This document shows positions 25,434 to 43,669 of a DNA stretch of 44,196 nucleotides, piece by piece. The notes below the pieces were generated by a model that saw only the letters and a program-made list of their open reading frames with translations, ran no database searches and had not been told where the DNA came from. Made by a program: the position numbers and the translations under genes. The stretch is from positions 1-44,196 of the IMG/VR virus record IMGVR_UViG_2778261274_000007. One strand, written 5' to 3'. Position 1 is the first letter of the stretch, and the number at the start of each line of letters is the position of its first letter. This stretch comes from a virus. Lineage: Duplodnaviria > Heunggongvirae > Uroviricota > Caudoviricetes.

Positions 25434-25584
25434 AGGGCGGTCAGTGCCTGACCCTGCCCGCGGCGACCTTTTGCCCGCCGAAGGGCGAAATGTTGACGAG
25501 AACAACTACTGGCTGCGCCGTGAAGCAGCGGGTGATATCCGGCGCGTGAATAAAAAGGTGAATACCGATGACGATAAGCTTTAA
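25414..25584 (+). CDS. DUF2635 (Mu gp38-like) small protein (56 aa)
   Basis: ATG at 25414 with GAGGA RBS; translation MFVKPVKGRSVPDPARGDLLPAEGRNVDENNYWLRR...; not in the ORF track (<60 aa). Confidence 0.45.
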   Translation: MFVKPVKGRSVPDPARGDLLPAEGRNVDENNYWLRREAAGDIRRVNKKVNTDDDKL

Positions 25585-27064
25585 CACCATTCCGTCGAAT
25601 ACGCTGGTTCCGTTGTTTTATGCGGAAATGGATAACCAGGCGGCGAATACTGCACAGGACAGCGGAGCATCGCTGCTGATTGGTCATGCCAATAACGGTG
25701 CAGAGATTGTTGCCAACAGTCTGGTACTGATGCCGTCGGCAGACTATGCACGCCAGATTTGTGGTGCGGGAAGTCAGCTGGCGCGTATGGTCGAGGCTTA
25801 TCGCCAGACCGATCCGTTTGGCGAGCTGTATGTGATTGCCGTTCCTGAATCCACAGGCGCGGCGGCAACAGTTACGCTGACGGTGACCGGGGCAGCAACC
25901 GAAACCGGCACGGTGAATGTTTATGTGGGACGTACCCGCGTGCAGGCACCGGTGACCAACGGCGATAACGTCGCGACGATTGCCAGCAGTATCAAAGATG
26001 CCATCAATGCCGTTCCGGCCCTGCCGTTTACGGCCTCATCTTCGGCTGGTGTGGTTACATTGACCGCTCGCCATAAGGGGCTTTGCGGGAATGAAATTCC
26101 TGTCAGCCTCAATTACTACGGCTTCGGTGGGGGCGAAGTGCTGCCAGCGGGCGTACAGATTGCCGTGGCGACGGGGACCGCCGGAACGGGCGCTCCGGTT
26201 CTCACCGGCGCGGTGGCTGCAATGGCGGATGAGCCGTTTGATTATATCGGTCTGCCGTTCAACGACACGGCCTCTGTTAACACGCTGGTGACCGAGATGA
26301 ACGATACCAGCGGTCGCTGGAGCTATGCGCGTCAGCTGTATGGTCATGTGTATACGGCAAAGGCCGGCACACTGTCAGAACTGGTGAACGCAGGTGCCCA
26401 GTTTAACCAGCAGCACATCACCCTGGCGGGGTACGAAAAAGAGACCCAGACGCCTGCCGACGAGCTGGCAGCCAGCCGTACCGCCCGCGCAGCGGTGTTT
26501 ATCCGCAACGATCCGGCACGTCCCACGCAGACCGGTGAGATGGTGGGTATGCTGCCTGCGCCGAAGGGGAAACGGTTCACGATGACCGAACAACAGACCC
26601 TGCTGTCTCATGGCGTGGCAACGGCGTATGTCGAAAGCGGGGTACTGCGCATTCAGCGTGATGTCACCACGTACAGGAAAAACGCTTACGGGGTTGCGGA
26701 TAACAGCTACCTCGACAGTGAGACACTGCATACCAGCGCGTATGTACTGCGCAAACTGAAATCCGTCATTACCAGTAAGTACGGGCGTCACAAGCTTGCC
26801 AGTGACGGTACCCGCTTTGGTCCCGGTCAGGCGATTGTCACCCCGGCGGTGATCAAAGGGGAACTGCTGGCAACCTACCGTCAGCTTGAGCGTGCGGGGA
26901 TCGTGGAAAACTACGAACTGTTTAAGCAGTACCTGGTTGTGGAGCGTGATGCCAGCGATCCGAACCGCCTGAACACGCTGTTCCCGCCTGACTATGTTAA
27001 CCAGTTGCGTGTCTTTGCCGTGGTTAACCAGTTCCGTCTTCAGTATTCAGAGGAGTCTGCATAA
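25568..27064 (+). CDS. Contractile tail sheath protein (Mu L-like; 498 aa)
   Basis: Size, position and family resemblance. Confidence 0.85.
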   Translation: MTISFNTIPSNTLVPLFYAEMDNQAANTAQDSGASLLIGHANNGAEIVANSLVLMPSADYARQICGAGSQLARMVEAYRQTDPFGELYVIAVPESTGAAATVTLTVTGAATETGTVNVYVGRTRVQAPVTNGDNVATIASSIKDAINAVPALPFTASSSAGVVTLTARHKGLCGNEIPVSLNYYGFGGGEVLPAGVQIAVATGTAGTGAPVLTGAVAAMADEPFDYIGLPFNDTASVNTLVTEMNDTSGRWSYARQLYGHVYTAKAGTLSELVNAGAQFNQQHITLAGYEKETQTPADELAASRTARAAVFIRNDPARPTQTGEMVGMLPAPKGKRFTMTEQQTLLSHGVATAYVESGVLRIQRDVTTYRKNAYGVADNSYLDSETLHTSAYVLRKLKSVITSKYGRHKLASDGTRFGPGQAIVTPAVIKGELLATYRQLERAGIVENYELFKQYLVVERDASDPNRLNTLFPPDYVNQLRVFAVVNQFRLQYSEESA

Positions 27065-27420
27065 TGGCCCGTATCGGGGGAACCTGTTATTTCAAAATTG
27101 ACGGTCAGCAGCTATCGCTGACCGGCGGCATTGAGGTGCCCATGAACAGGACGGTCAATGATGACATCATCGGCCTGGACGGTTCAGTGGACCGCAAGGA
27201 AACTCACCGTGCGCCCTATGTCAAAGGGACCTTCAAGGTGCCGAAGAATTTTCCGGTGAGCAAAATCACCTCGTCTGATGAGATGACCATCACTGCCGAG
27301 CTGGCGAACGGTCAGGTCTATGTACTGTCGTCTGCCTGGCTGCACGGCGAAGCGAACCATAATGCCGAAGAAGGCACGGTTGATCTTGAGTTCCACGGTG
27401 AAGAAGGGGATTACCAGTGA
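27064..27420 (+). CDS. Tail tube protein (118 aa)
   Basis: Follows the sheath. Confidence 0.75.
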   Translation: MARIGGTCYFKIDGQQLSLTGGIEVPMNRTVNDDIIGLDGSVDRKETHRAPYVKGTFKVPKNFPVSKITSSDEMTITAELANGQVYVLSSAWLHGEANHNAEEGTVDLEFHGEEGDYQ

Positions 27421-27740
27421 TTGAGCTTGTACTTAAAAAACCGATCATCGCCCACAAAGAAACACTGCATGTGCTGGAAATACGTGAGCCTACGTATGAC
27501 GAGATTGAGGCGCTGGGGTTCCCTTTCTCTGTTTCACCTGATGGTGGTATGAAAATGGACAGTCAGGTAGCGCTGAAATATATCCCGCTTCTGGCCGGGA
27601 TCCCGCGCTCGTCTGCAGCGCAGATGACGAAGCTGGATATTTTCAAGGCAGGCATGATTGTAATGCGTTTTTTTACCGGCTTGGAGACGGAAGAGACCTC
27701 CGGAAGCGATTCTACAATGTCGCGTGGTTCTGGAAATTAA
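27417..27740 (+). CDS. Tail assembly chaperone (107 aa, GTG start); probable -1 frameshift isoform extends to 27832
   Basis: Position between tube and tape measure; in-frame slippery heptamer T_TTT_TTT. Confidence 0.6.
   Translation: MIELVLKKPIIAHKETLHVLEIREPTYDEIEALGFPFSVSPDGGMKMDSQVALKYIPLLAGIPRSSAAQMTKLDIFKAGMIVMRFFTGLETEETSGSDSTMSRGSGN
27668..27674 (+). promoter_or_regulatory. Candidate programmed -1 ribosomal frameshift site (T TTT TTT)
   Basis: Heptamer in the zero frame of the chaperone; the -1 frame is open from here to the TGA at 27830..27832. Confidence 0.35.
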
Positions 27741-27824
27741 ACCCCCTTGAACTTCGCCGGACGGCTATTTCCCACTTTGCTGATCTGGAGGCAGAGGCCG
27801 TCCGTATAAATGAGGAGATGAAGC

Positions 27825-29732
27825 ATGGCTGATAATTTTCAGCTGAAAGCCATCATCACCGCCGTTGACAGGCTGTCCGGCCCGCTTAAAGGTATGCAGC
27901 GTCAGCTTAAGGGGTTTCAGAAAGAAGTCTCCAGCCTTGCTCTGGGCGCTGCCGGGGCGGGTACTGCAATAATGGGGGCACTGGCACTCCCTGTAAAATC
28001 AGCCATCACCCTTGAATCGAAGATGGCTGATGTCCGCAAAGTGGTAGACGGTCTGGATACGCCGGATGCGTTTAAGGCCATGACGGAGCAGGTACGCGCT
28101 TTGTCTACTGAGCTTCCCATGTCTGCAGACGGGATCGCGGAAATTGTGGCGGCTGGCGGTCAGGCCGGGATTGCACGTGATGAACTGATGCAGTTTGCCA
28201 CTGATGCGGTGAAGATGGGCGTGGCCTTTGATACCACGGCTGAAGAGTCCGGGCAGATGATGGCCCAGTGGCGTACTGCGTTTAATATGACGCAGGATGA
28301 AGTGGCCGGGCTGGCTGACAAAATCAACTACCTTGGTAATACCGGCCCGGCGAATGCGAAGAAAATCTCCGATATTGTTACGCGTATTGGTCCTTTAGGT
28401 GGTGTTGCAGGTGTGGCTTCCGGCGAAATCGCGGCAATGGGGGCAACCATTGCCGGGATGGGCGTGGAGTCAGAAATTGCCGCCACAGGGATCAAGAACT
28501 TCATGCTTTCCCTGACCGCGGGAAATTCCGCGACAAAATCGCAGAAACAGGCATTACGTTTTCTGCGGATCAATCCGAAGAAATTAGCTGCTGATATGCA
28601 GAAAGATGCCCGGGGAACCATGCTGTCTGTACTGGATGCGATGGCTAAAGTGCCCAAAGAAAAACAGGCAGCTGTGCTGAATGCCCTGTTCGGGAAAGAG
28701 TCTCTGGGCGCGATAGCACCTCTGCTGACTAACCTTGATTTGTTGCGTACCAACTTCAGGCGGGTTGCGGATTCCCAGCAGTATGGCAGTTCGATGCAGA
28801 AGGAATATGCTTCGAGGGCAGCGACGACGGAAAACCAGCTTTTACTTCTGCAAAATCAACTTGATGCCATTTCTTCCACGCTGGGGGAAACGTTTCTTCC
28901 TGAGGTTAATGATGGTCTTGAAGCGGTAAAACCGCTCCTTGAGGAAGTGAGAACGTTTGTCCGTGAAAACCCGGAGCTCGTTAAGACCATTGCTAAAATC
29001 GGTCTGGCCTTACTGACGGTGGGAGCCGCTGCAGGCTCTTTGTCCAGAATTATGAAAGTTCTCGGCGGTGTGATGAATATGACGCCTGCTAAGGGGCTGA
29101 TTGCTCTTCTGGTTGGTGGCGCTTACCTCATTATTGATAACTGGGAAACCGTAGGTCCTGTCATAAAAAAAGTCTGGCACGTGGTGGATGAAACGGCGCA
29201 GGCGATGGGGGGATGGGAAACTGTTCTGAAAGCGATTGCCCTGTTTATGGCAACCAAATGGGTTGCTGACGTTACCAAATCCATTACCGCAGTGACCAGA
29301 GAGATGCGTACGCTGGGGAAGGTATCGGCAGAAACGGGATTGATGGGGAAAGGCCGCGGCTTTATCGGGAAGGCCGGGGTATATGGTTTTCTGGGAACCC
29401 TGATGTATGAGCCGGTTAAAGATACTCTGGAAAGTGTTGTTCCTGAAGATACGGTTAACTGGCTGGATAATAAAGGGCTGTTTCTGGCTTCAGACTGGAC
29501 GCCTTTTTTTGATCGTAAAGAGTACGAGCAGTATCAGGCCAGCCTGAGTCAGTACAAACCCAATGTTCCGCTGTTGAATCCATCTTCTTCCATGACACAG
29601 CACAGCGAGCTGAAAGTCACGTTCGAGAATGCTCCGCCAAGTATGAAGATAATTGATGTACCGGGCAAAGCCGATCCCCTGATGAAAATCACGCACGATG
29701 TGGGGTATTCCCCTTTTCGTTTTCCACGATAA
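27825..29732 (+). CDS. Tail tape measure protein (635 aa)
   Basis: Long Ala/Gly-rich alpha-helical protein in the expected position. Confidence 0.85.
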   Translation: MADNFQLKAIITAVDRLSGPLKGMQRQLKGFQKEVSSLALGAAGAGTAIMGALALPVKSAITLESKMADVRKVVDGLDTPDAFKAMTEQVRALSTELPMSADGIAEIVAAGGQAGIARDELMQFATDAVKMGVAFDTTAEESGQMMAQWRTAFNMTQDEVAGLADKINYLGNTGPANAKKISDIVTRIGPLGGVAGVASGEIAAMGATIAGMGVESEIAATGIKNFMLSLTAGNSATKSQKQALRFLRINPKKLAADMQKDARGTMLSVLDAMAKVPKEKQAAVLNALFGKESLGAIAPLLTNLDLLRTNFRRVADSQQYGSSMQKEYASRAATTENQLLLLQNQLDAISSTLGETFLPEVNDGLEAVKPLLEEVRTFVRENPELVKTIAKIGLALLTVGAAAGSLSRIMKVLGGVMNMTPAKGLIALLVGGAYLIIDNWETVGPVIKKVWHVVDETAQAMGGWETVLKAIALFMATKWVADVTKSITAVTREMRTLGKVSAETGLMGKGRGFIGKAGVYGFLGTLMYEPVKDTLESVVPEDTVNWLDNKGLFLASDWTPFFDRKEYEQYQASLSQYKPNVPLLNPSSSMTQHSELKVTFENAPPSMKIIDVPGKADPLMKITHDVGYSPFRFPR

Positions 29733-29756: not shown

Positions 29757-31133
29757 ATGGATTTATCCTCATTTCCCACCCGACCTTCATTACTTTCGTC
29801 GTCTTCAGGCTGGCGTGACAGACTTCAGGACGCGTCATTTCGCGGCGTGCCGTTTAAGGTTGAAGAAGAAAGTGCGGGAACCGGTCGCCGTGTGGAAACA
29901 CATGAATACCCGAACCGCGACAAACCCTATACCGAAGACCTGGGGAAAATCACTTTTCGCCCGTCCATCACGGCTTATGTGGTGGGAGATGACTGCTTTG
30001 ACCAGCGCGATCGCCTGATTGACGCGCTGAATAAACCCGGTCCCGGCACGCTTGTCCATCCGACATACGGTGAGCTGAAAGTCTGTGTTGACGGAGAAGT
30101 TCGGGTCAGCACATCGAAGAGTGAAGGGCGTATTGTCCGCTTTGACCTGAAGTTTGTCGAAGCGGGAGAACTCTCTTACCCCACTTCAGGTGCGGCGACG
30201 GCGCAGACGCTGATGTCATCCTGTTCTGCACTGGATGACTGCATCAGTGACAGCTTCAGAGGTTTCAGTATCGATGGCGTGGCGGATTTCGTGCAGAACG
30301 ACGTCGTTGGTAATGTCAGCACAATGCTTGGGTATGTTTCTGATGCGATGAAAGTGGTGGATTCTGCCGTATCGGATGCTGCCAGGCTGTTGCAGGGGGA
30401 TATCTCGGTACTTCTGCCGCCACCATCGTCAGGCAAAAATCTCGTTGAGCAGGTGCAGAAAATGTGGCGTACCGGGAAACGCCTTTATGGTAACGCCAGC
30501 GACCTGGTCACCATGATCAAAACGCTTTCCGGTGTCAGCCTCGGCAGCGATCTGCAACCGCGCGGCGTCTGGAAAACGGACAGTAAAACCACCGCCACGG
30601 CTACGCAGCAGCGTAATGTGGTTGCCAGCACCCTTCGTACGACCGCAATCAGTGAAGCGGCGTATGCCGTCACCCGATTGCCTGCGCCAACAACTTCCGC
30701 GGTGATGCAGAATTCCGCAGTGGGGCAGGCAACAACACCTGCGCAGAGCACTGGCTGGCCTTCCGTCACGCATCCGGCACTGAACAATGCACCGGCGGTG
30801 AAAAACACGGTTGACCTGCCGACGTGGGAAGAACTGACTGACATTCGCGACACACTGAATACGGCAATTGATAAGGAGTTGTCCCGTACAACCAGTGATG
30901 CGCTGTTTCTGGCGCTGCGCCGGGTGAAAGCAGATCTGAATGCGGATATCAACACGCGCCTTGAACAGTCTGCACGGATCATTCAGCGCACACCGGATGA
31001 GGTTTTACCCGCGCTGGTGCTGGCGGCGACCTGGTTTGATAACGCGGCGCGTGACGCGGACATTATCCGGCGTAATGCCATTACGCATCCCGGCTTTGTG
31101 CCGGTGATCCCTCTGAAGGTGCCAGTGCAATGA
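29757..31133 (+). CDS. Mu N-like DNA circularisation protein (458 aa)
   Basis: Position after the tape measure in the Mu-like order. Confidence 0.7.
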   Translation: MDLSSFPTRPSLLSSSSGWRDRLQDASFRGVPFKVEEESAGTGRRVETHEYPNRDKPYTEDLGKITFRPSITAYVVGDDCFDQRDRLIDALNKPGPGTLVHPTYGELKVCVDGEVRVSTSKSEGRIVRFDLKFVEAGELSYPTSGAATAQTLMSSCSALDDCISDSFRGFSIDGVADFVQNDVVGNVSTMLGYVSDAMKVVDSAVSDAARLLQGDISVLLPPPSSGKNLVEQVQKMWRTGKRLYGNASDLVTMIKTLSGVSLGSDLQPRGVWKTDSKTTATATQQRNVVASTLRTTAISEAAYAVTRLPAPTTSAVMQNSAVGQATTPAQSTGWPSVTHPALNNAPAVKNTVDLPTWEELTDIRDTLNTAIDKELSRTTSDALFLALRRVKADLNADINTRLEQSARIIQRTPDEVLPALVLAATWFDNAARDADIIRRNAITHPGFVPVIPLKVPVQ

Positions 31134-32209
31134 ACGACAATGTCACGCTACGGGTAAATGGCCGGGAGTGGAATGGCTGGACATCGGTGCGCATCGGTGC
31201 CGGTATTGAACGGCTGGCGCGGGATTTCAGTGTGGAGATCACTCGCCAGTGGCCGGGAGATGAGGGTATCACCACGCTTCAGCCGCGCATTAAAAACGGT
31301 TCAAAAGTGGAAGTGCTGATTGGTGATGAGCTGGTGATCACCGGCTGGGTGGAGGCGACTCCCGTTCGTTACGATGCCCGTTCGGTCAGCACCGGTATTG
31401 CCGGACGTAGTCTGACGGCTGACCTGATTGACTGTGCAGCCGAACCGACACAGTTTAACGGACGCTCGCTGGTGCAGATTGCGCAGGCGCTTGCTGCGCC
31501 TTTCGGCATTGAGGTGGTGAACAGCGATGCGCCGTCGGGTGTTATTCCTGATGTTCAGCCTGATCACGGTGAAACGGTGATTGAGGTAATCAACAAAATA
31601 CTCGGTCAGCAGCAGGCACTGGCTTACGACGACCCGCACGGCAGGCTGGTGATTGGCGGTATTGGCTCAACGCGGGCACATACTGCGCTGGTACTCGGGG
31701 AAAACATCCTTTCCTGCGATACGGAGAAGAGTATCCGGGAGCGATTTTCTGTTTACCAGGTGGCGGGGCAGCGTGCCGGGAACGACGATGATTTCGGTGA
31801 GGCCACCACCACCGCGCTGCGGGCCCGCACAGAGGACGCATTTATTGCCCGTTACCGTCCGATGTATATCAGGCAGACAGGGCAGGCCACGGGGGCAGGC
31901 TGTATTGCGCGTGCTGACTTTGAAGCCCGACAACGGGCGGCGCGGACGGATGAAACCACCTATTTGGTGCAGGGCTGGCGACAGGGTAACGGTACGCTGT
32001 GGCAGCCCAACCAGCGGGTGATTGTCTTCGATCCGGTCTGTGGTTTCGACAATACCGAACTGCTTGTCTCGGAAGTCACGTTCACTCAGGACCAGAACGG
32101 CACCATGACGGAAATCCGTGTCGGCCCACCTGATGCTTATCTGCCTGAACCCGAAGCCCCCGGCGCGCGGAAAAAGAAAAAAGCCAGAGTACAGGAGGAC
32201 TCGTTCTGA
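31130..32209 (+). CDS. Baseplate hub protein (Mu P-like; 359 aa)
   Basis: Position and family resemblance. Confidence 0.65.
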   Translation: MNDNVTLRVNGREWNGWTSVRIGAGIERLARDFSVEITRQWPGDEGITTLQPRIKNGSKVEVLIGDELVITGWVEATPVRYDARSVSTGIAGRSLTADLIDCAAEPTQFNGRSLVQIAQALAAPFGIEVVNSDAPSGVIPDVQPDHGETVIEVINKILGQQQALAYDDPHGRLVIGGIGSTRAHTALVLGENILSCDTEKSIRERFSVYQVAGQRAGNDDDFGEATTTALRARTEDAFIARYRPMYIRQTGQATGAGCIARADFEARQRAARTDETTYLVQGWRQGNGTLWQPNQRVIVFDPVCGFDNTELLVSEVTFTQDQNGTMTEIRVGPPDAYLPEPEAPGARKKKKARVQEDSF

Positions 32210-37724: not shown

Positions 37725-38543
<819 letters not shown>

Positions 38544-38904
38544 TCATTGCAAGGGCTCACAACCAGTAGTGTTGAGAAAACCATCGGAGAAATGAGGCTA
38601 AGCCTTTGAATTTACATAGTACAAAAAAGATACTTTTCCTCATAATGTGAGCTAATTTTATGTTTCGTTTGATGATTGGACCGGTCTCGAAAACCGTAGA
38701 CACATAGTATGCGTTAATTTATGAACAAACTACTTGTCTGCTGTTTTTCTGTCATTAGTCGTATATAGAATGATTCTCTATGCCTAACAAAGCATCACCA
38801 GTGCTAGATTACGTTGTAGTCACTGTTTAAATATCCAGATAAAACATTTCCTTCTGGGTTGAATGAGTGATAAAGTTTCACCCATTAGACCCCTTGGAGG
38901 AATT

Positions 38905-40338
38905 ATGTCTGAATTTGAAGTGTTGGCACAGCATCTGCTGAAGGAAGCCGAGGCGGAAGAAAAGCTGCGACAGGAAAATGATAAAAAGCTTATCGAGAAA
39001 GTGCTGGAAATCTATGATCAGAAGTATGTGGCTGAATTACTGAGAAAAGTCGGAAAAAATGAGTGGAGCCGTGAAACCATTAACCGCTGGATTAATGGCA
39101 AGTGTTTACCAAAATCGTTGACTTCAGTAGAAGAGTCTCTTCTGCGTAAGATGCTACCAGAACCACCTGCAAACCATCCGGAATATGCTTTCCGCTTCAT
39201 TGACTTATTTGCTGGAATTGGAGGGATACGGAAAGGTTTTGAGGCCATTGGAGGCCAGTGTGTTTTTACCAGTGAATGGAATAAAGATGCTGTGCGTACA
39301 TACAAGGCCAACTGGTTTAACGATGAACAGGTGCATAAATTCAATCTCGATATTCGGGAAGTCACGCTGAGTGATAAAACCGATGTATTGGAAACGGATG
39401 CTTATGCATATATTGATGAGCATGTGCCGGATCATGATGTGCTTCTTGCGGGGTTCCCGTGCCAGCCATTTAGCCTTGCTGGTGTTAGTAAGAAAAACTC
39501 ACTTGGTCGTGCGCATGGTTTTGAATGTGAAGCACAAGGAACACTTTTTTTTGACGTGGCACGTATTATACGAGCAAAAAAACCGGCAATTTTTGTGCTG
39601 GAAAATGTCAAAAATCTGAAGAGCCATGATAAGGGTAAAACTTTCAAAGTCATTATGGAGACCCTTGACGAGCTGGGCTACGAAGTTGCCGATGCTGCAG
39701 AAATGGGAAAAAACGATCCAAAGATTATCGATGGGAAGCATTTTTTGCCTCAGCATCGTGAACGCATTGTTCTGGTCGGATTTAGACGAGATCTGAATAT
39801 TCACAAGGGGTTTACCTTGCGTGATATCAGTCGTTTTTATCCGGAACACCGCCCATCATTTGGTGAATTGCTGGAGCCTGTAGTCGACAGTAAATATATA
39901 CTTACGCCAAAACTATGGGAGTACCTTTATAACTACGCCAAAAAGCATGCAGCCAAGGGGAATGGTTTTGGCTTTGGGTTGGTCAATCCTGAGAATAAGG
40001 AAAGCATTGCACGCACACTTTCTGCCAGATATCACAAAGACGGATCAGAAATTCTTATTGATCGTGGTTGGGATATGGCAACGGGAGAGGCTGACTTTAT
40101 GAATGAGAGTAATCAGGCTCGTCGACCACGCAGGCTGACTCCCCGAGAGTGCGCACGCCTTATGGGATTTGAAAAACCTGGAGGGAAACCATTCCGTATT
40201 CCGGTTTCAGATACTCAGTCATATCGGCAGTTCGGTAACTCAGTTGTGGTGCCAGTATTTGAAGCTGTTGCCAGACTTCTGGAACCCTATATCCTCAAAG
40301 CTGTTTCTGCTGATGCTGGTAAGACTGGGCAGCCTTGA
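38905..40338 (+). CDS. ecoRIIM: DNA C5-cytosine methyltransferase, Dcm / M.EcoRII family (477 aa from internal Met)
   Basis: Motifs I ([10 protein letters not shown]), IV (GFPCQPFS) and VI (ENVKNL); close resemblance to E. coli Dcm; GGAGG RBS at 38896. Confidence 0.8.
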
Positions 40339-40372: not shown

Positions 40373-41587
40373 CTATGATAGTTCAGCGTAAAGCTCTATC
40401 AGCTCAGTAATGAATGCTCCGAGCGTTATTAATTCTTCTCTAACTGCTTCTGGGTATTTTTTATGTAAAGTTGATGGTACAACGAGTCTGACACCCGCAT
40501 CTTTCATTTCTCGGTATTGTGCTGAAGAAACACCTTCTTGCAGTGTAAATAAATGTACCTGATGGATTTTATCTGCTTCATTCAGTATCTGACGCCAGCG
40601 ATCTTTGCAGGTGGTCTTTACTGCCAGCATACGTAAGTTTTCTACAGGAAATTCAACGTTATGATATGCCTCTGCTGAAGGAAACAGGAAATCTGGTTTT
40701 TTATTACCTTCAGTAACTGCCTGAGTGGAGAAATGCCGTAGTCCGTGCTCGATAAAAAGCTTCTCTAGGTGAAGTTCAAGTGATTTGCCTGCCCTTGATT
40801 TACGTCGATTACTGACAGAGTTGGCTAATGCAATAAACTCATCTACAGAATCGAATCCTTTCTTAATAATATCAAGAACATGTAATTCCTCGACGAGTAG
40901 AAAAATATCATACTCGACACGCCGACGGTCAATCAGTTGCTCATCTGGATCCTTGGAGTTTTTAGCATAATGGCCAGCAGCATATTGAATAATTTCGTTT
41001 CCAGAAGGAAAACGCTTCTTCCAGTCTTCAGGAATAACATATTTATGATTTACTGGAGTTTGCTGAAGAGACAATCCGCCCAAAATTTGTCCGGCAGGGC
41101 CGGAAATTAGGGTTCCAGGTATGATTTCGCCAATAGCAGACTCGATGATATCCTCTTCATCGGGATTGACGCAGACCCATATATCTACCTCGGAACAGTC
41201 AGTGTTCTGTTCGTTTAACCTGAAAGCAAGAATTGTGAGGGCTCCTGTATTTTCAGGGTTCTGTAATGGACTTCCTCTCCCCCAGCGCGTAATTCTTTTT
41301 TCGTTTCGGGTCTTACCAAAATAACGGTTGTTGTAATAAATTGCGCGTGCTTGGGTATCAGGGCAATCATGGGATGATACATGCGCAGTAAGGAAGACTG
41401 AAGGGTTCAGTTCGCGAGTATGATTGATAGATGGAAAAAGCTTTTCAACGATATTTGAGGGGATATAAAGTCCGACCTGATGGCCACCTGTTGCGCCTGT
41501 GTCGTTTGCAGAAAGGCGTTTGATGTAGATAAAGTAATTCCCGCTTGCGATATCAAGCAGCCAGTTATGAAAAACCGACATATACAT
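40373..41587 (-). CDS. ecoRIIR: Type IIE restriction endonuclease, EcoRII-like (404 aa)
   Basis: Convergent with the Dcm-family methyltransferase; length and N-terminal sequence consistent with R.EcoRII as recalled. Confidence 0.7.
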   Translation of the reverse strand: MYMSVFHNWLLDIASGNYFIYIKRLSANDTGATGGHQVGLYIPSNIVEKLFPSINHTRELNPSVFLTAHVSSHDCPDTQARAIYYNNRYFGKTRNEKRITRWGRGSPLQNPENTGALTILAFRLNEQNTDCSEVDIWVCVNPDEEDIIESAIGEIIPGTLISGPAGQILGGLSLQQTPVNHKYVIPEDWKKRFPSGNEIIQYAAGHYAKNSKDPDEQLIDRRRVEYDIFLLVEELHVLDIIKKGFDSVDEFIALANSVSNRRKSRAGKSLELHLEKLFIEHGLRHFSTQAVTEGNKKPDFLFPSAEAYHNVEFPVENLRMLAVKTTCKDRWRQILNEADKIHQVHLFTLQEGVSSAQYREMKDAGVRLVVPSTLHKKYPEAVREELITLGAFITELIELYAELS

Positions 41588-42454: not shown

Positions 42455-43669
42455 ATGAAGCTCAATGCCAGACAGGTCGAGACTGCCAAGCCCAAAGATA
42501 AACCCTACAAGATGGCTGATGGTGGTGGCCTCTACTTATTGGTTAAAACTAACGGGTCACGCTACTGGCGTTTAAAGTATCGTATCGATGGAAAGGAAAA
42601 GTTATTGGCGCTGGGGGTATATCCCGATGTGTCTTTGGCTGATGCCAGAGCAAAGCGTGATGAAGCTCGAAAAGGTATCGCTGGGGGTATCGATCCTTTA
42701 GAGCTTAAGAAAGAACATAAAGCTGAGCGTGAAGCGCAGGTCAAAAACACCTTTCAGCAAATTGCGCTCGAATGGCACAGCATGAAAGTGAAAAAATGGT
42801 CAGTTGGGTATGCCTCTGACATTCTCGAAGCTTTCAATAAAGATATTTTTCCTTTTCTTGGTCAACGGCCTGTTGCGGACATTAAGCCATTAGAGCTTCT
42901 TAATGTGCTTAAAAAAATCGAAGCCAGAGGTGCAACAGAGAAAGCAAAGAAAGTGCGCCAACGATGTGGTGAAGTGTTTCGCTATGCCATCGTGACAGGC
43001 AGAGCCGAGTATAATCCCGCTCCTGATCTCACCAGTGCCATGCAGGGGCATGAATCTACACATTACCCGTTCCTGACCACCGAAGAGCTTCCTGCCTTTT
43101 TTAAAGCCCTTGCTGGCTACTCTGGTAGTGAATTGATGGTGTTGGCAGCAAGATTATTGATCCTTACTGGCCTAAGAACGGGTGAATTGCGTGGTGCCTT
43201 ATGGTCGGAAATCGATTCCGAGAAAGCGCTATGGGAAATTTCTGCTGAACGCATGAAAATGCGCCGTCCTCATATCATCCCGCTATCTACCCAAGCGTTA
43301 GCCATTATCGAAAAGATCAGAGCAATGACGGGACAATTCCCTTTGCTGTTTCCGGGCCGCAATGATCCAAGTAAGACCATGAGCGAAGCCAGTATCAATC
43401 AGGTATTTAAGCGAATCGGCTATACAGGACGGGTTACGGGTCACGGCTTCCGTCATACCATGAGCACCGTTCTTCATGAACAGGGCTACAACACCGCATG
43501 GATTGAAACCCAACTAGCCCATGTTGATAAGAATGCTATCCGTGGCACCTACAACCATGCGCAATATCTCGATGGCAGACGCGAGATGCTGCAATGGTAT
43601 GCCGACTACATGGTAAGCCTTGAGAAAGGCGGTAATGTCGTACAGGGAACGTTTAATCGGTGTGGGTAA
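42455..43669 (+). CDS. Tyrosine integrase, P4-like (404 aa)
   Basis: N-terminal KYRIDGKEKLLALGVYP arm-binding-type region; C-terminal HGFRHT and RGTYNHAQY. Confidence 0.85.
   Translation: MKLNARQVETAKPKDKPYKMADGGGLYLLVKTNGSRYWRLKYRIDGKEKLLALGVYPDVSLADARAKRDEARKGIAGGIDPLELKKEHKAEREAQVKNTFQQIALEWHSMKVKKWSVGYASDILEAFNKDIFPFLGQRPVADIKPLELLNVLKKIEARGATEKAKKVRQRCGEVFRYAIVTGRAEYNPAPDLTSAMQGHESTHYPFLTTEELPAFFKALAGYSGSELMVLAARLLILTGLRTGELRGALWSEIDSEKALWEISAERMKMRRPHIIPLSTQALAIIEKIRAMTGQFPLLFPGRNDPSKTMSEASINQVFKRIGYTGRVTGHGFRHTMSTVLHEQGYNTAWIETQLAHVDKNAIRGTYNHAQYLDGRREMLQWYADYMVSLEKGGNVVQGTFNRCG

Follow-up and report, generated by a model that had tools for sequence, protein, structure and literature searches.

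Does the tail assembly chaperone gene of this E. coli prophage specify one protein or two? The first-pass annotation of the window (the whole 44,196-nt stretch analyzed here) had proposed a programmed −1 frameshift in this gene, as part of a conserved G/GT-type arrangement upstream of the tape measure gene. Such recoding is well known in tailed phages. In the class of Xu, Hendrix and Duda 2004, a short product and a fusion are reportedly made at a fixed ratio, both being essential for tail assembly and absent from virions. The sequence evidence from the window and its relatives makes it highly likely that a 107-aa protein, G, and a 138-aa fusion, GT, are produced from one start by a ribosomal −1 slip at T_TTT_TTT.

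Gene organization around the chaperone gene

The chaperone gene lies between the tail tube and tape measure genes, with all three on the + strand. The tail tube gene (27064..27420, 118 aa) matches PF10618 (E=2.4e-33) and phrog_185, and the tape measure gene (27825..29732, 635 aa) matches PF10145 (E=2.2e-42) and phrog_28 (E=1.1e-142). The zero-frame product of the chaperone gene, G (27417..27740, GTG start, TAA stop, 107 aa), scores 32.1 bits against PF10109 (Phage_TAC_7), above the gathering cut-off of 25 across the whole domain (residues 5-86 on profile positions 3-78 of 79), and matches phrog_166 (E=1.3e-25). RefSeq lists the same protein, from the same GTG at 27417, as 'phage tail assembly protein' WP_000571713.1. 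The three genes belong to a Mu-like, contractile tail module that also includes a sheath, a DNA circulation protein and a gp44-like hub.

The operon is tightly packed. The tube stop and chaperone start overlap as GTGA, and the 84-nt gap between the G stop and the tape measure start, in which we found no promoter-like or terminator-like site on the + strand, is filled exactly by the −1 frame extension, T. The T stop (TGA, 27830-27832) and the tape measure ATG (27825) overlap as ATGGCTGA, and the tape measure ribosome-binding site, GAGGAG, is located within the last T codons.

The heptamer and the −1 frame in the window

Seven T's occupy positions 27668-27674 in the local sequence ATG CGT TTT TTT ACC GGC. 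Since (27668-27417) mod 3 = 2, base 27668 is the third base of CGT (Arg84), and 27669-71 and 27672-74 are the zero-frame TTT codons of Phe85 and Phe86. The heptamer is therefore in the X_XXY_YYZ register, and it is the only in-register heptamer within the overlap of the zero and −1 frames. An open −1 frame of 96 codons spans 27542 to 27832. The first-pass annotation had placed the heptamer in the zero frame of the chaperone and counted about 53 open −1 codons up to the TGA at 27830..27832, overlapping the tape measure start; both statements hold, the 53 being 52 sense codons (YRLGDG...EEMKHG) and the stop. The predicted fusion joins 27417-27674 to 27674-27832, with base 27674 read twice, to give 138 aa. 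T thus covers 27674..27832 on the + strand, of which 27674..27740 would be dual-coding, as the zero-frame tail of G (21 codons past the heptamer and the stop) runs through the start of T. Predicted T-frame peptides include FYNVAWFWK, LNPLELR and TAISHFADLEAEAVR; the predicted junction peptide is FFYR, and FFTGLETEETSGSDSTMSR is specific to G.

Taken alone, the window sequence is weak evidence for recoding and only suggestive. Runs of seven or more T's number 13 in the 44-kb window, compared to approximately 4 expected from a first-order Markov model. Under the same model, the probability of 52 open codons is approximately 0.09, and 52 open codons occur at 25% of all + strand positions. It is the comparison with relatives that places the recoding site far beyond chance.

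Conservation of the slip site and the −1 frame

Related phages, to which the annotation had pointed as a check, retain the arrangement. A scan of genome contigs with a single protein gave 204 related loci, representing 138 distinct DNA sequences. All but three (201/204), found in Escherichia, Shigella, Salmonella, Yersinia, Pantoea, Edwardsiella and Pseudomonas, carry T_TTT_TTY in register at the same Phe-Phe codons together with an open −1 frame of 50-55 codons. In the 11 representatives that were inspected individually, this frame stops at the tape measure start or no more than a few bases away. Two more distant relatives contain T_TTT_TTG and T_TTT_TTC. In tblastn searches with the predicted fusion, 28 of 30 phage records yielded both halves, in two frames, with identities as low as 34%.

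Across divergent relatives, the heptamer is the only invariant nucleotide block of the region. Comparison of 10 divergent phages revealed T at each of the first six positions in every case, followed by either T or C. The codon preceding the two Phe codons varies (CGT, AAT, GGT or AGT, encoding R, N, G or S), its third base is always T, and the first Phe codon is always TTT. Since a fixed T followed by TTT, with T or C free to alternate at the seventh base, is exactly what tandem tRNA re-pairing requires, we count this pattern as nucleotide-level selection for the slip site.

The heptamer marks exactly where protein conservation leaves the zero frame and continues in the −1 frame. The zero-frame tail past the heptamer is 3, 8, 10 or 21 codons long in relatives, while T keeps a constant length of 50-55 codons. 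Over the 50 codons after the slip, Nei-Gojobori dN/dS values for the −1 frame were 0.07, 0.20 and 0.43; three further pairs gave saturated synonymous sites in this frame. The zero and +1 frames past the slip gave values of about 0.7-2.8 and contain stops. By this measure, purifying selection acts on the −1 frame only.

These data bear on whether the heptamer and open frame might be a coincidence without recoding function, or a DNA-level switch between T7 and T8 (phase variation). The weak single-sequence statistics would fit the first idea, and the occurrence of T8 and T5-type variants in a few assemblies would fit the second. Coincidence is excluded by the purifying selection on the −1 frame and the invariance of the heptamer across genera. 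T8 assemblies contain a single ORF that equals the predicted fusion residue for residue, but they are rare (2-5 contigs, compared to at least 1000 contigs with the T7 product) and may be homopolymer sequencing errors. A switch would also remove G, yet lambda requires both G and GT, and tail assembly depends critically on the ratio between them, according to PMC5009743. We regard coincidence or a switch as extremely improbable.

Could the −1 frame instead be a small gene in its own right, translated from a start codon of its own or by ribosomes that terminate on G and reinitiate? Some annotators do call it as a separate ORF: T matches phrog_32181 (E=4.5e-6), a family of unassigned function made up of such calls, and vB_EcoM-689R6 has a 'hypothetical protein' between E and the tape measure gene. 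Moreover, SfV-type sequences carry a GTG 5 codons upstream of the heptamer. However, this GTG lacks an SD-like sequence and is not conserved, and the window, SfIV, phiP27 and ST64B contain no ATG, GTG or TTG upstream of the conserved T motif, FYNVAWFWKLNP. In the window, the −1 frame is free of these start codons over a stretch that begins 30 codons ahead of the slip and ends 4 codons short of the stop. As the conserved T motif is located upstream of the G stop, reinitiation after G is excluded, and an independent start could not reach the motif either. Protein conservation also changes frame precisely at the heptamer. A separate gene is almost certainly not the answer.

A further possibility is that RNA polymerase adds one U at the T7 run, so that the mRNA reads CGU UUU UUU UAC in frame and the same GT is made from an altered transcript. 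The run is a homopolymer, and one extra U yields exactly the predicted fusion, as the T8 assemblies illustrate. However, efficient slippage by E. coli RNA polymerase usually takes runs of about 9 or more, longer than the run of seven in the window. The interrupted runs of relatives, T6C in about half of the family lineages (SfV, SfII, AH07, EPP-1, DVM-2008 and BgVeeders33) and T6G in P2 and PG1, would slip much less, and the arrangement is kept in them nonetheless. In addition, the constant X_XXY_YYZ register and the forced third-position T are needed for tandem tRNA slippage and not for slippage by the polymerase. In favor of slippage by the polymerase, E. coli genes contain far fewer UUUUUUU runs than expected, whichever the phase, and transcriptional slippage or indels have been held partly responsible (PMC4066793). 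On balance, transcriptional slippage as the source of GT is very unlikely, and we favor the ribosomal −1 slip.

Every element of the G/GT-type arrangement that sequence can address was found: the gene order, the register of the heptamer, the conservation of the arrangement in relatives, the coding-type evolution of the second frame and the lack of a start of T's own.

A search for RNA stimulators

We asked if RNA signals flank the heptamer. Folds of the 46, 86 and 161 nt after it did not stand out from shuffled controls. The z-scores were between -0.8 and +0.8 for 7 of the 8 sequences, and a consensus fold computed from 8 relatives had an energy of -1.85 kcal/mol, so that we found neither a hairpin nor a pseudoknot conserved downstream. 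Inspection by eye revealed no conserved SD-like element upstream. Since no stimulator was detected, the heptamer alone probably determines the GT:G ratio.

In an E. coli reporter without a stimulator, UUUUUUU gave 0.33% −1 frameshifting, at least as high as the values obtained in the same reporter for the lambda heptamer GGGAAAG (0.28%) and UUUUUUG of P2 (0.12%; PMC4066793). The same study ranks U_UU.Y as the second-best A-site class and describes this motif class as frameshift-prone in E. coli (PMC4066793). With no conserved stimulator, efficiency could be as low as about 0.3%, and GT probably amounts to a few percent of G or less.

Comparison with P2, lambda and Mu

In P2, genes E and E+E′ are connected by a −1 frameshift at TTTTTTG (Christie et al., 2002; Xu et al., 2004; as cited in PMC3091744), and in the P2 record the CDS is annotated as joined, with a marked 'site of -1 translational frameshift'. 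The window resembles P2 in several respects. In both contractile-tail phages, the gene is directly upstream of the tape measure gene, its upstream part belongs to PF10109, and the slip codon falls at the same profile position, 78 of 79 (residue 85 in GFL of P2, residue 86 in RFF of the window). Both have a T-rich heptamer, a −1 extension of 51-52 codons and an 8-nt overlap between the stop of this extension and the tape measure ATG; no RNA stimulator was found in either. Product sizes are similar, at 91 and 142 aa in P2 and 107 and 138 aa in the window. The two differ in the seventh base of the heptamer (G in P2, T in the window) and in their tail modules, since that of the window, with its DNA circulation protein and gp44-like hub, is Mu-like and not P2-like. 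Moreover, the T part of the window has no match to PF06528 (Phage_P2_GpE) at E<=10, while P2 E+E′ matches at 1.2e-21. With hhalign, the T part could be aligned to E′ only remotely (16% identity, with a probability of 50% and E=1.6e-4 over both parts).

Lambda makes G and GT by a −1 frameshift at G_GGA_AAG (Levin et al., 1993; Xu et al., 2004, 2013, 2014; as given in PMC5009743). As in the window, the lambda chaperone gene lies between the major tail and tape measure genes, and ribosomes shift to the −1 frame at a low level close to its 3′ end, which yields a minor product with a C-terminal extension. However, there is no detectable sequence similarity, the slipping tRNAs are Gly-Lys in lambda and Phe-Phe in the window, and the lambda tail is non-contractile. 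Functions of the G and T parts have been demonstrated for lambda only.

For the Mu tail assembly chaperone gp41, a −2 frameshift was proposed by Xu et al. (2004; as cited in PMC2628397). The genes neighboring the chaperone in the window are Mu-like, and Mu gp41 scores weakly on PF10109. In contrast, gp41 (144 aa) belongs to PF23746, while the window protein has no PF23746 match (only PF10109 at E<=0.01); gp41 also lacks a T-rich heptamer, and its extension is in the +1/−2 frame beside a GGGGGCG run. Searches by tblastn with the window fusion did not recover Mu. We rejected a Mu-type −2 shift for the window, as there is no PF23746 match and the +1 frame is open for 28 codons only.

Judged by these comparisons of sequence, the site is an ordinary G/GT-type recoding site of the P2 type.

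A model for G and GT

In the model that we favor, most ribosomes would translate 27417-27740 to its end, yielding the 107-aa chaperone G. In a minority of cases, with two tRNA-Phe on UUU UUU of U_UUU_UUU (27668-27674), the ribosome would slip back one base; the tRNAs would re-pair with UUU UUU in the −1 frame, the next codon would be UAC, and translation would continue for 52 codons to the TGA at 27830-27832. The product would be the 138-aa GT fusion, ...VMRFF|YRLGDG...EEMKHG. If lambda G/GT and P2 E/E+E′ serve as a guide, the G part may coat the tape measure protein, while the rarer T part may recruit the tail tube protein so that the tube polymerizes around the tape measure. Both G and GT would be absent from the finished virion, as in lambda and P2.

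To characterize the T part, we searched for family and structural matches. No Pfam or NCBIfam family was identified (no Pfam match even at E<=10). An AlphaFold2 model of one GT protein (P0002), made with an 18-sequence alignment, had a mean pLDDT of 68.8, with the G part moderately confident and the T part poor (pLDDT 38-56). A sequence search of solved structures gave only a chance match (E=0.22), and Foldseek of the GT model against the PDB gave nothing with E<1. Foldseek matches in BFVD were weak and consistently named 'tape measure chaperone' or 'tail assembly chaperone' (best E=5e-4, TM 0.47). As T has no family and a low-confidence model, a tube-binding role for it is pure analogy.

Comparison of the window with SfV raises the possibility of other partners. 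The tube proteins of the two are 100% identical, yet their T parts are only 34% identical and their tape measure proteins 27% identical. T and G co-vary with the tape measure and T does not with the tube; G, T and the tape measure are exchanged as one module. Seven residues of T are invariant (L95, A103, W106, P110, A128, R130 and I131). Because T differs so much between phages with identical tubes, we considered that T may not recognize the tube in the manner of the lambda model: it may dock on the tape measure or another partner, or may see the tube through the few invariant residues. Separately, part of GT may come from RNA polymerase slippage at T7. We rate these departures from the model as rather unlikely.

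Annotation status and implications

The 138-aa GT isoform is absent from the RefSeq E. coli annotation of the prophage and from SfIV and vB_EcoM-720R4, and no joined CDS is listed for SfV, SfII, phiP27, ST64B and others. The SfIV genome paper terms ORF-12 hypothetical and does not mention a frameshift. A literature search that stopped short of the tables of Xu 2004 and Christie 2002 found no report of the fusion for SfIV, SfV, ST64B or phiP27. G/GT recoding is thus unannotated here and in the reference phages of the group. The region matches 1,095 of 5,426 complete E. coli genomes and is full-length in 236. Shigella flexneri carries a fixed G-T fusion, which appears as a 'frameshifted' chaperone gene.

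The main value of the finding is for annotation, and the understanding of recoding itself is unchanged. By analogy with lambda, an unrecognized GT would matter for any assessment of the intactness of these prophages. GT is also relevant to work that engineers these serotype-converting and Stx-associated phages or their tails, and to the reading of 'frameshifted' chaperone genes such as that of S. flexneri.

A heptamer and an open -1 frame in the chaperone gene

The chaperone gene lies within a Mu-like contractile tail module, as gene calls and profile matches in the window revealed. Sheath (25568-27064) and tube (27064-27420) genes precede the 107-aa ORF (27417-27740), while genes for the tape measure (27825-29732), a DNA-circulation protein (29757-31133) and a gp44-type hub (31130-32209) follow it. 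The 107-aa product, G, has an above-threshold match to Pfam PF10109 (Phage_TAC_7, "tail assembly chaperone proteins E, or 41 or 14") and matches phrog_166 (E=1.3e-25).

The first-pass annotation had proposed a slip site in the zero frame of this gene and a -1 frame ending over the tape measure start. Seven T's at 27668-27674 are read as ATG CGT TTT TTT ACC GGC (VMRFFTGLE in G) and, counted from the ORF start at 27417, are phased T_TTT_TTT, as proposed. The -1 frame stays open over positions 27542-27832. Past the slip it reads YRLGDGRDLRKRFYNVAWFWKLNPLELRRTAISHFADLEAEAVRINEEMKHG, 52 codons, before the TGA at 27830-27832, which shares bases with the tape measure ATG at 27825: ATGGCTGA. The coordinates of this stop, like those of the heptamer, agree with the proposal. 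By themselves, the heptamer and open frame of one sequence are not compelling, since the window holds 13 runs of at least seven T's and a frame stays open for 52 codons by chance with a probability of ~0.09.

As an E. coli prophage, the window falls in the SfIV/SfV/ST64B/phiP27 group. Positions 27000-28000 are 100% identical to Escherichia phage vB_EcoM-720R4 (720R4) and many E. coli chromosomes, and 99.1% identical to Shigella phage SfIV. At the left end, a tRNA-Thr (CGU) gene (1369-1444) directly adjoins a phage integrase gene (1459-2622, minus strand). This end (1369-2622) is likely the attachment end of the prophage, as in SfV, and agrees with the integration of SfV at thrW (PMC3091744). 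The window also encodes a GIY-YIG domain protein (37725-38498, minus strand), an EcoRII-type restriction-modification pair (C5 cytosine methylase, 38863-40338, plus strand; EcoRII endonuclease, 40373-41587, minus strand) and a second tyrosine integrase (42455-43669, plus strand).

The arrangement is conserved in relatives

When we used the predicted 138-aa fusion (GT) as a tblastn query, 30 phage records matched. In 28, the match came in two pieces that together covered at least 80% of the fusion, with the halves in different frames. Identity reached down to 34%, and the records were those of Escherichia, Shigella, Salmonella, Yersinia, Pantoea, Edwardsiella, Paraburkholderia and Pseudomonas phages. 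Every representative had T_TTT_TTT or T_TTT_TTC in register on two Phe codons that close the conserved chaperone domain, and a -1 frame open between the heptamer and the tape measure start. In a nucleotide alignment of ten representatives, the six T's at 27668-27673 were the sole invariant block nearby; the seventh base was T or C.

Scans of IMG/VR and GTDB genomes enlarged the sample to 204 loci with a chaperone homologue. In 201 of them (138 distinct DNA sequences), the heptamer stood in register ahead of a -1 ORF of 50-55 codons, while the zero-frame tail past the heptamer was 3, 8, 10 or 21 codons, depending on lineage. The layout was unchanged in two more distant relatives, Pseudomonas phage PG1 (T_TTT_TTG) and Burkholderia phage BgVeeders33 (T_TTT_TTC). 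Thus, related phages keep the open -1 frame, and the G/GT-type arrangement upstream of the tape measure is conserved, as the first-pass annotation had supposed. Of the three exceptional loci, two retain the heptamer, with a 1-nt indel farther 3', and the third comes from an unverified record of a Paraburkholderia phage.

Phage IPK of Paraburkholderia (L012 650-740, an UNVERIFIED record) is the sole relative lacking the heptamer. Its Phe-Phe codons are TTC TTC, where the -1 frame is closed; that frame does not open until 3 codons short of the chaperone's stop (ACT GAG GGC GCG TAA). IPK has either a different, non-classical shift site or errors in the record. Salmonella phage 118970_sal3 (L007 646-810), an atypical assembly of 77 kb that matches in two places, keeps the heptamer, but a 1-nt indel near the VYNTAYFW motif breaks the T frame, which is why its annotated "tail protein" is aberrant, at 132 aa.

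In all inspected records of the group, a joined CDS of both frames was absent. The RefSeq E. coli, SfIV and 720R4 records have one 324-nt CDS followed by an 84-nt "gap", and one CDS then a gap, with the frames unjoined, is also found in the SfV, SfII, phiP27, ST64B, YeP2, AH07, EPP-1 and DVM-2008 records. Pfam and NCBIfam hold no family for the -1 extension. By itself the extension matches phrog_32181 (E=4.5e-6), a family of short unannotated phage ORFs; other annotators have therefore treated this frame as an ORF in its own right.

The -1 frame is probably reached from within G

We compared the 50 codons after the slip by the Nei-Gojobori method within two subgroups, window/phiP27/ST64B and SfV/AH07/EPP-1. 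The -1 frame gave dN/dS values of 0.07, 0.20 and 0.43 for three pairs; in the other three, synonymous sites were saturated (pS 0.75-0.92), with pN of 0.13-0.31. The zero and +1 frames both contained stops and gave dN/dS of ~0.7-2.8. Aligned fusions share invariant T-part residues (L95, A103, W106, P110, A128, R130 and I131) and the motif [FY][ND]xAx[FY]W[KR]x[ND]P. Chance is contradicted by these frame results and the comparative ones, and a DNA-level switch is contradicted by the results as well.

No ATG, GTG or TTG occurs in the -1 frame of the window over the stretch that begins 30 codons upstream of the heptamer and ends 4 codons short of the stop, a result that contradicts separate initiation of T. 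The conserved T motif lies upstream of G's own stop, contradicting reinitiation. T is therefore reachable only via a frame change within G. Across the family, the zone open in the zero and -1 frames alike shrinks to some ten codons surrounding the heptamer: in phiP27 the -1 frame opens just 7 codons upstream, and in the SfV type G stops 3 codons downstream.

Within this zone the first Phe codon is always TTT and the second TTT or TTC. The preceding codon encodes R, N, G or S and always ends in T (CGT, AAT, GGT, AGT). Simultaneous re-pairing of tRNA-Phe in the P and A sites requires exactly this pattern. From codon usage in the window (TTT, 61% of Phe; GGT, 30% of Gly; CGT, 33% of Arg; AAT, 40% of Asn), the chance of the pattern in about five diverged lineages is roughly 1e-4. 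This figure is a rough estimate, and the lineages are not fully independent.

One extra U added at the run by transcriptional slippage would yield an identical protein, and the exact 138-aa fusion does exist in NCBI (WP_250113089.1 and others). These entries arise because a few E. coli assemblies carry T8 rather than T7. The ribosome is favored over the polymerase by the constant register, by the T enforced ahead of the first Phe codon and by the occurrence of T6C and T6G variants in about half of the lineages. A minor polymerase contribution at T7 is possible.

Variants of run length were also recovered. T8 in two E. coli assemblies (L208 and L209, 852-859) puts G and T in one frame, as does a product one Phe short (P0002, RFYRL). 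Such variants occur on 2-5 contigs, versus at least 1000 for the T7 product, and reflect real indels or else sequencing errors in the homopolymer. In a phiP27-like chaperone of Shigella flexneri (L014 1195-1617), a 1-nt deletion ~13 codons past the T7 heptamer joins G to T in the zero frame: RFFTQSETGSTSGKRLYNVAWFWKLNP (proteins P0029, P0030, P0031 and P0033). Since these variants occur on 661, 112 and 105 contigs, the deletion looks fixed rather than an error. It would mean constitutive GT without G, as expected of a defective prophage.

The layout resembles that of P2

The P2 record annotates E (91 aa), a joined E+E' CDS (142 aa) and a "site of -1 translational frameshift" at TTTTTTG. PF10109 covers residues 7-85 of E+E' (profile 2-78 of 79) and 5-86 of the window protein (profile 3-78 of 79), and in both the domain terminates on the slip codon. 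Both also have a -1 ORF of 51-52 codons, with an 8-nt overlap between its stop and the tape measure ATG. P2 E' belongs to PF06528, whereas the T part has no match to this family. Profile alignment of the fusion family with E+E' spanned both parts but was weak (probability 50%, E=1.6e-4, 16% identity).

Mu gp41 (L206 2053-2640) differs from the window chaperone in belonging to PF23746 and lacking a T run. Its extension is in the +1/-2 frame, near a GGGGGCG run, whereas that of the window is in the -1 frame; the Mu-like tail module thus lacks Mu's own recoding solution. The Mu layout agrees with the -2 shift that Xu et al. 2004 (cited in PMC2628397) attributed to this phage.

We found no conserved RNA structure 3' of the heptamer; such structure is likewise reported to be missing in P2 and relatives (PMC3091744). 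U_UU.Y is the second-ranked A-site tetramer (PMC4066793). In an E. coli reporter without a stimulator, -1 frameshifting was 0.33% for UUUUUUU, 0.12% for both UUUUUUC and UUUUUUG (the P2 site) and 0.28% for GGGAAAG (the lambda site) (Sharma et al. 2014; PMC4066793, Table S3). In the same assay, the window heptamer is therefore at least as slippery as those of P2 and lambda. The lambda G:GT ratio is ~30:1, and P2 frameshifting is 2- to 3-fold more efficient than lambda's (PMC5009743). By inference from these phages, GT would be a minor product, up to a few percent. As in lambda, G would bind the tape measure and T would recruit the tube.

When a GT protein was modelled with AlphaFold2, confidence was moderate for the G part, which forms two strands and then helices, and low for the T part, which is helical. 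Sequence and model searches of the PDB gave no match; the best BFVD matches, with weak scores, were named tape measure chaperone or tail assembly chaperone.

The window and SfV share a tube protein at 100% identity. Similarity to SfV collapses ~30 nt into the chaperone gene (junction near 27446-27455), and identity is 43% for the G part, 34% for the T part and 27% for the tape measure N-terminus. Chaperone, T extension and tape measure are swapped as one module, independent of the tube.

We conclude that the heptamer and -1 ORF are a real finding, rightly interpreted in the first-pass annotation. Sequence comparison identifies, within the chaperone gene of this Mu-like tail module, a predicted programmed -1 frameshift site of the P2 type (E/E+E') that is conserved across a wide family. 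The site belongs to a textbook class, of which it is a new member or at least one lacking annotation.
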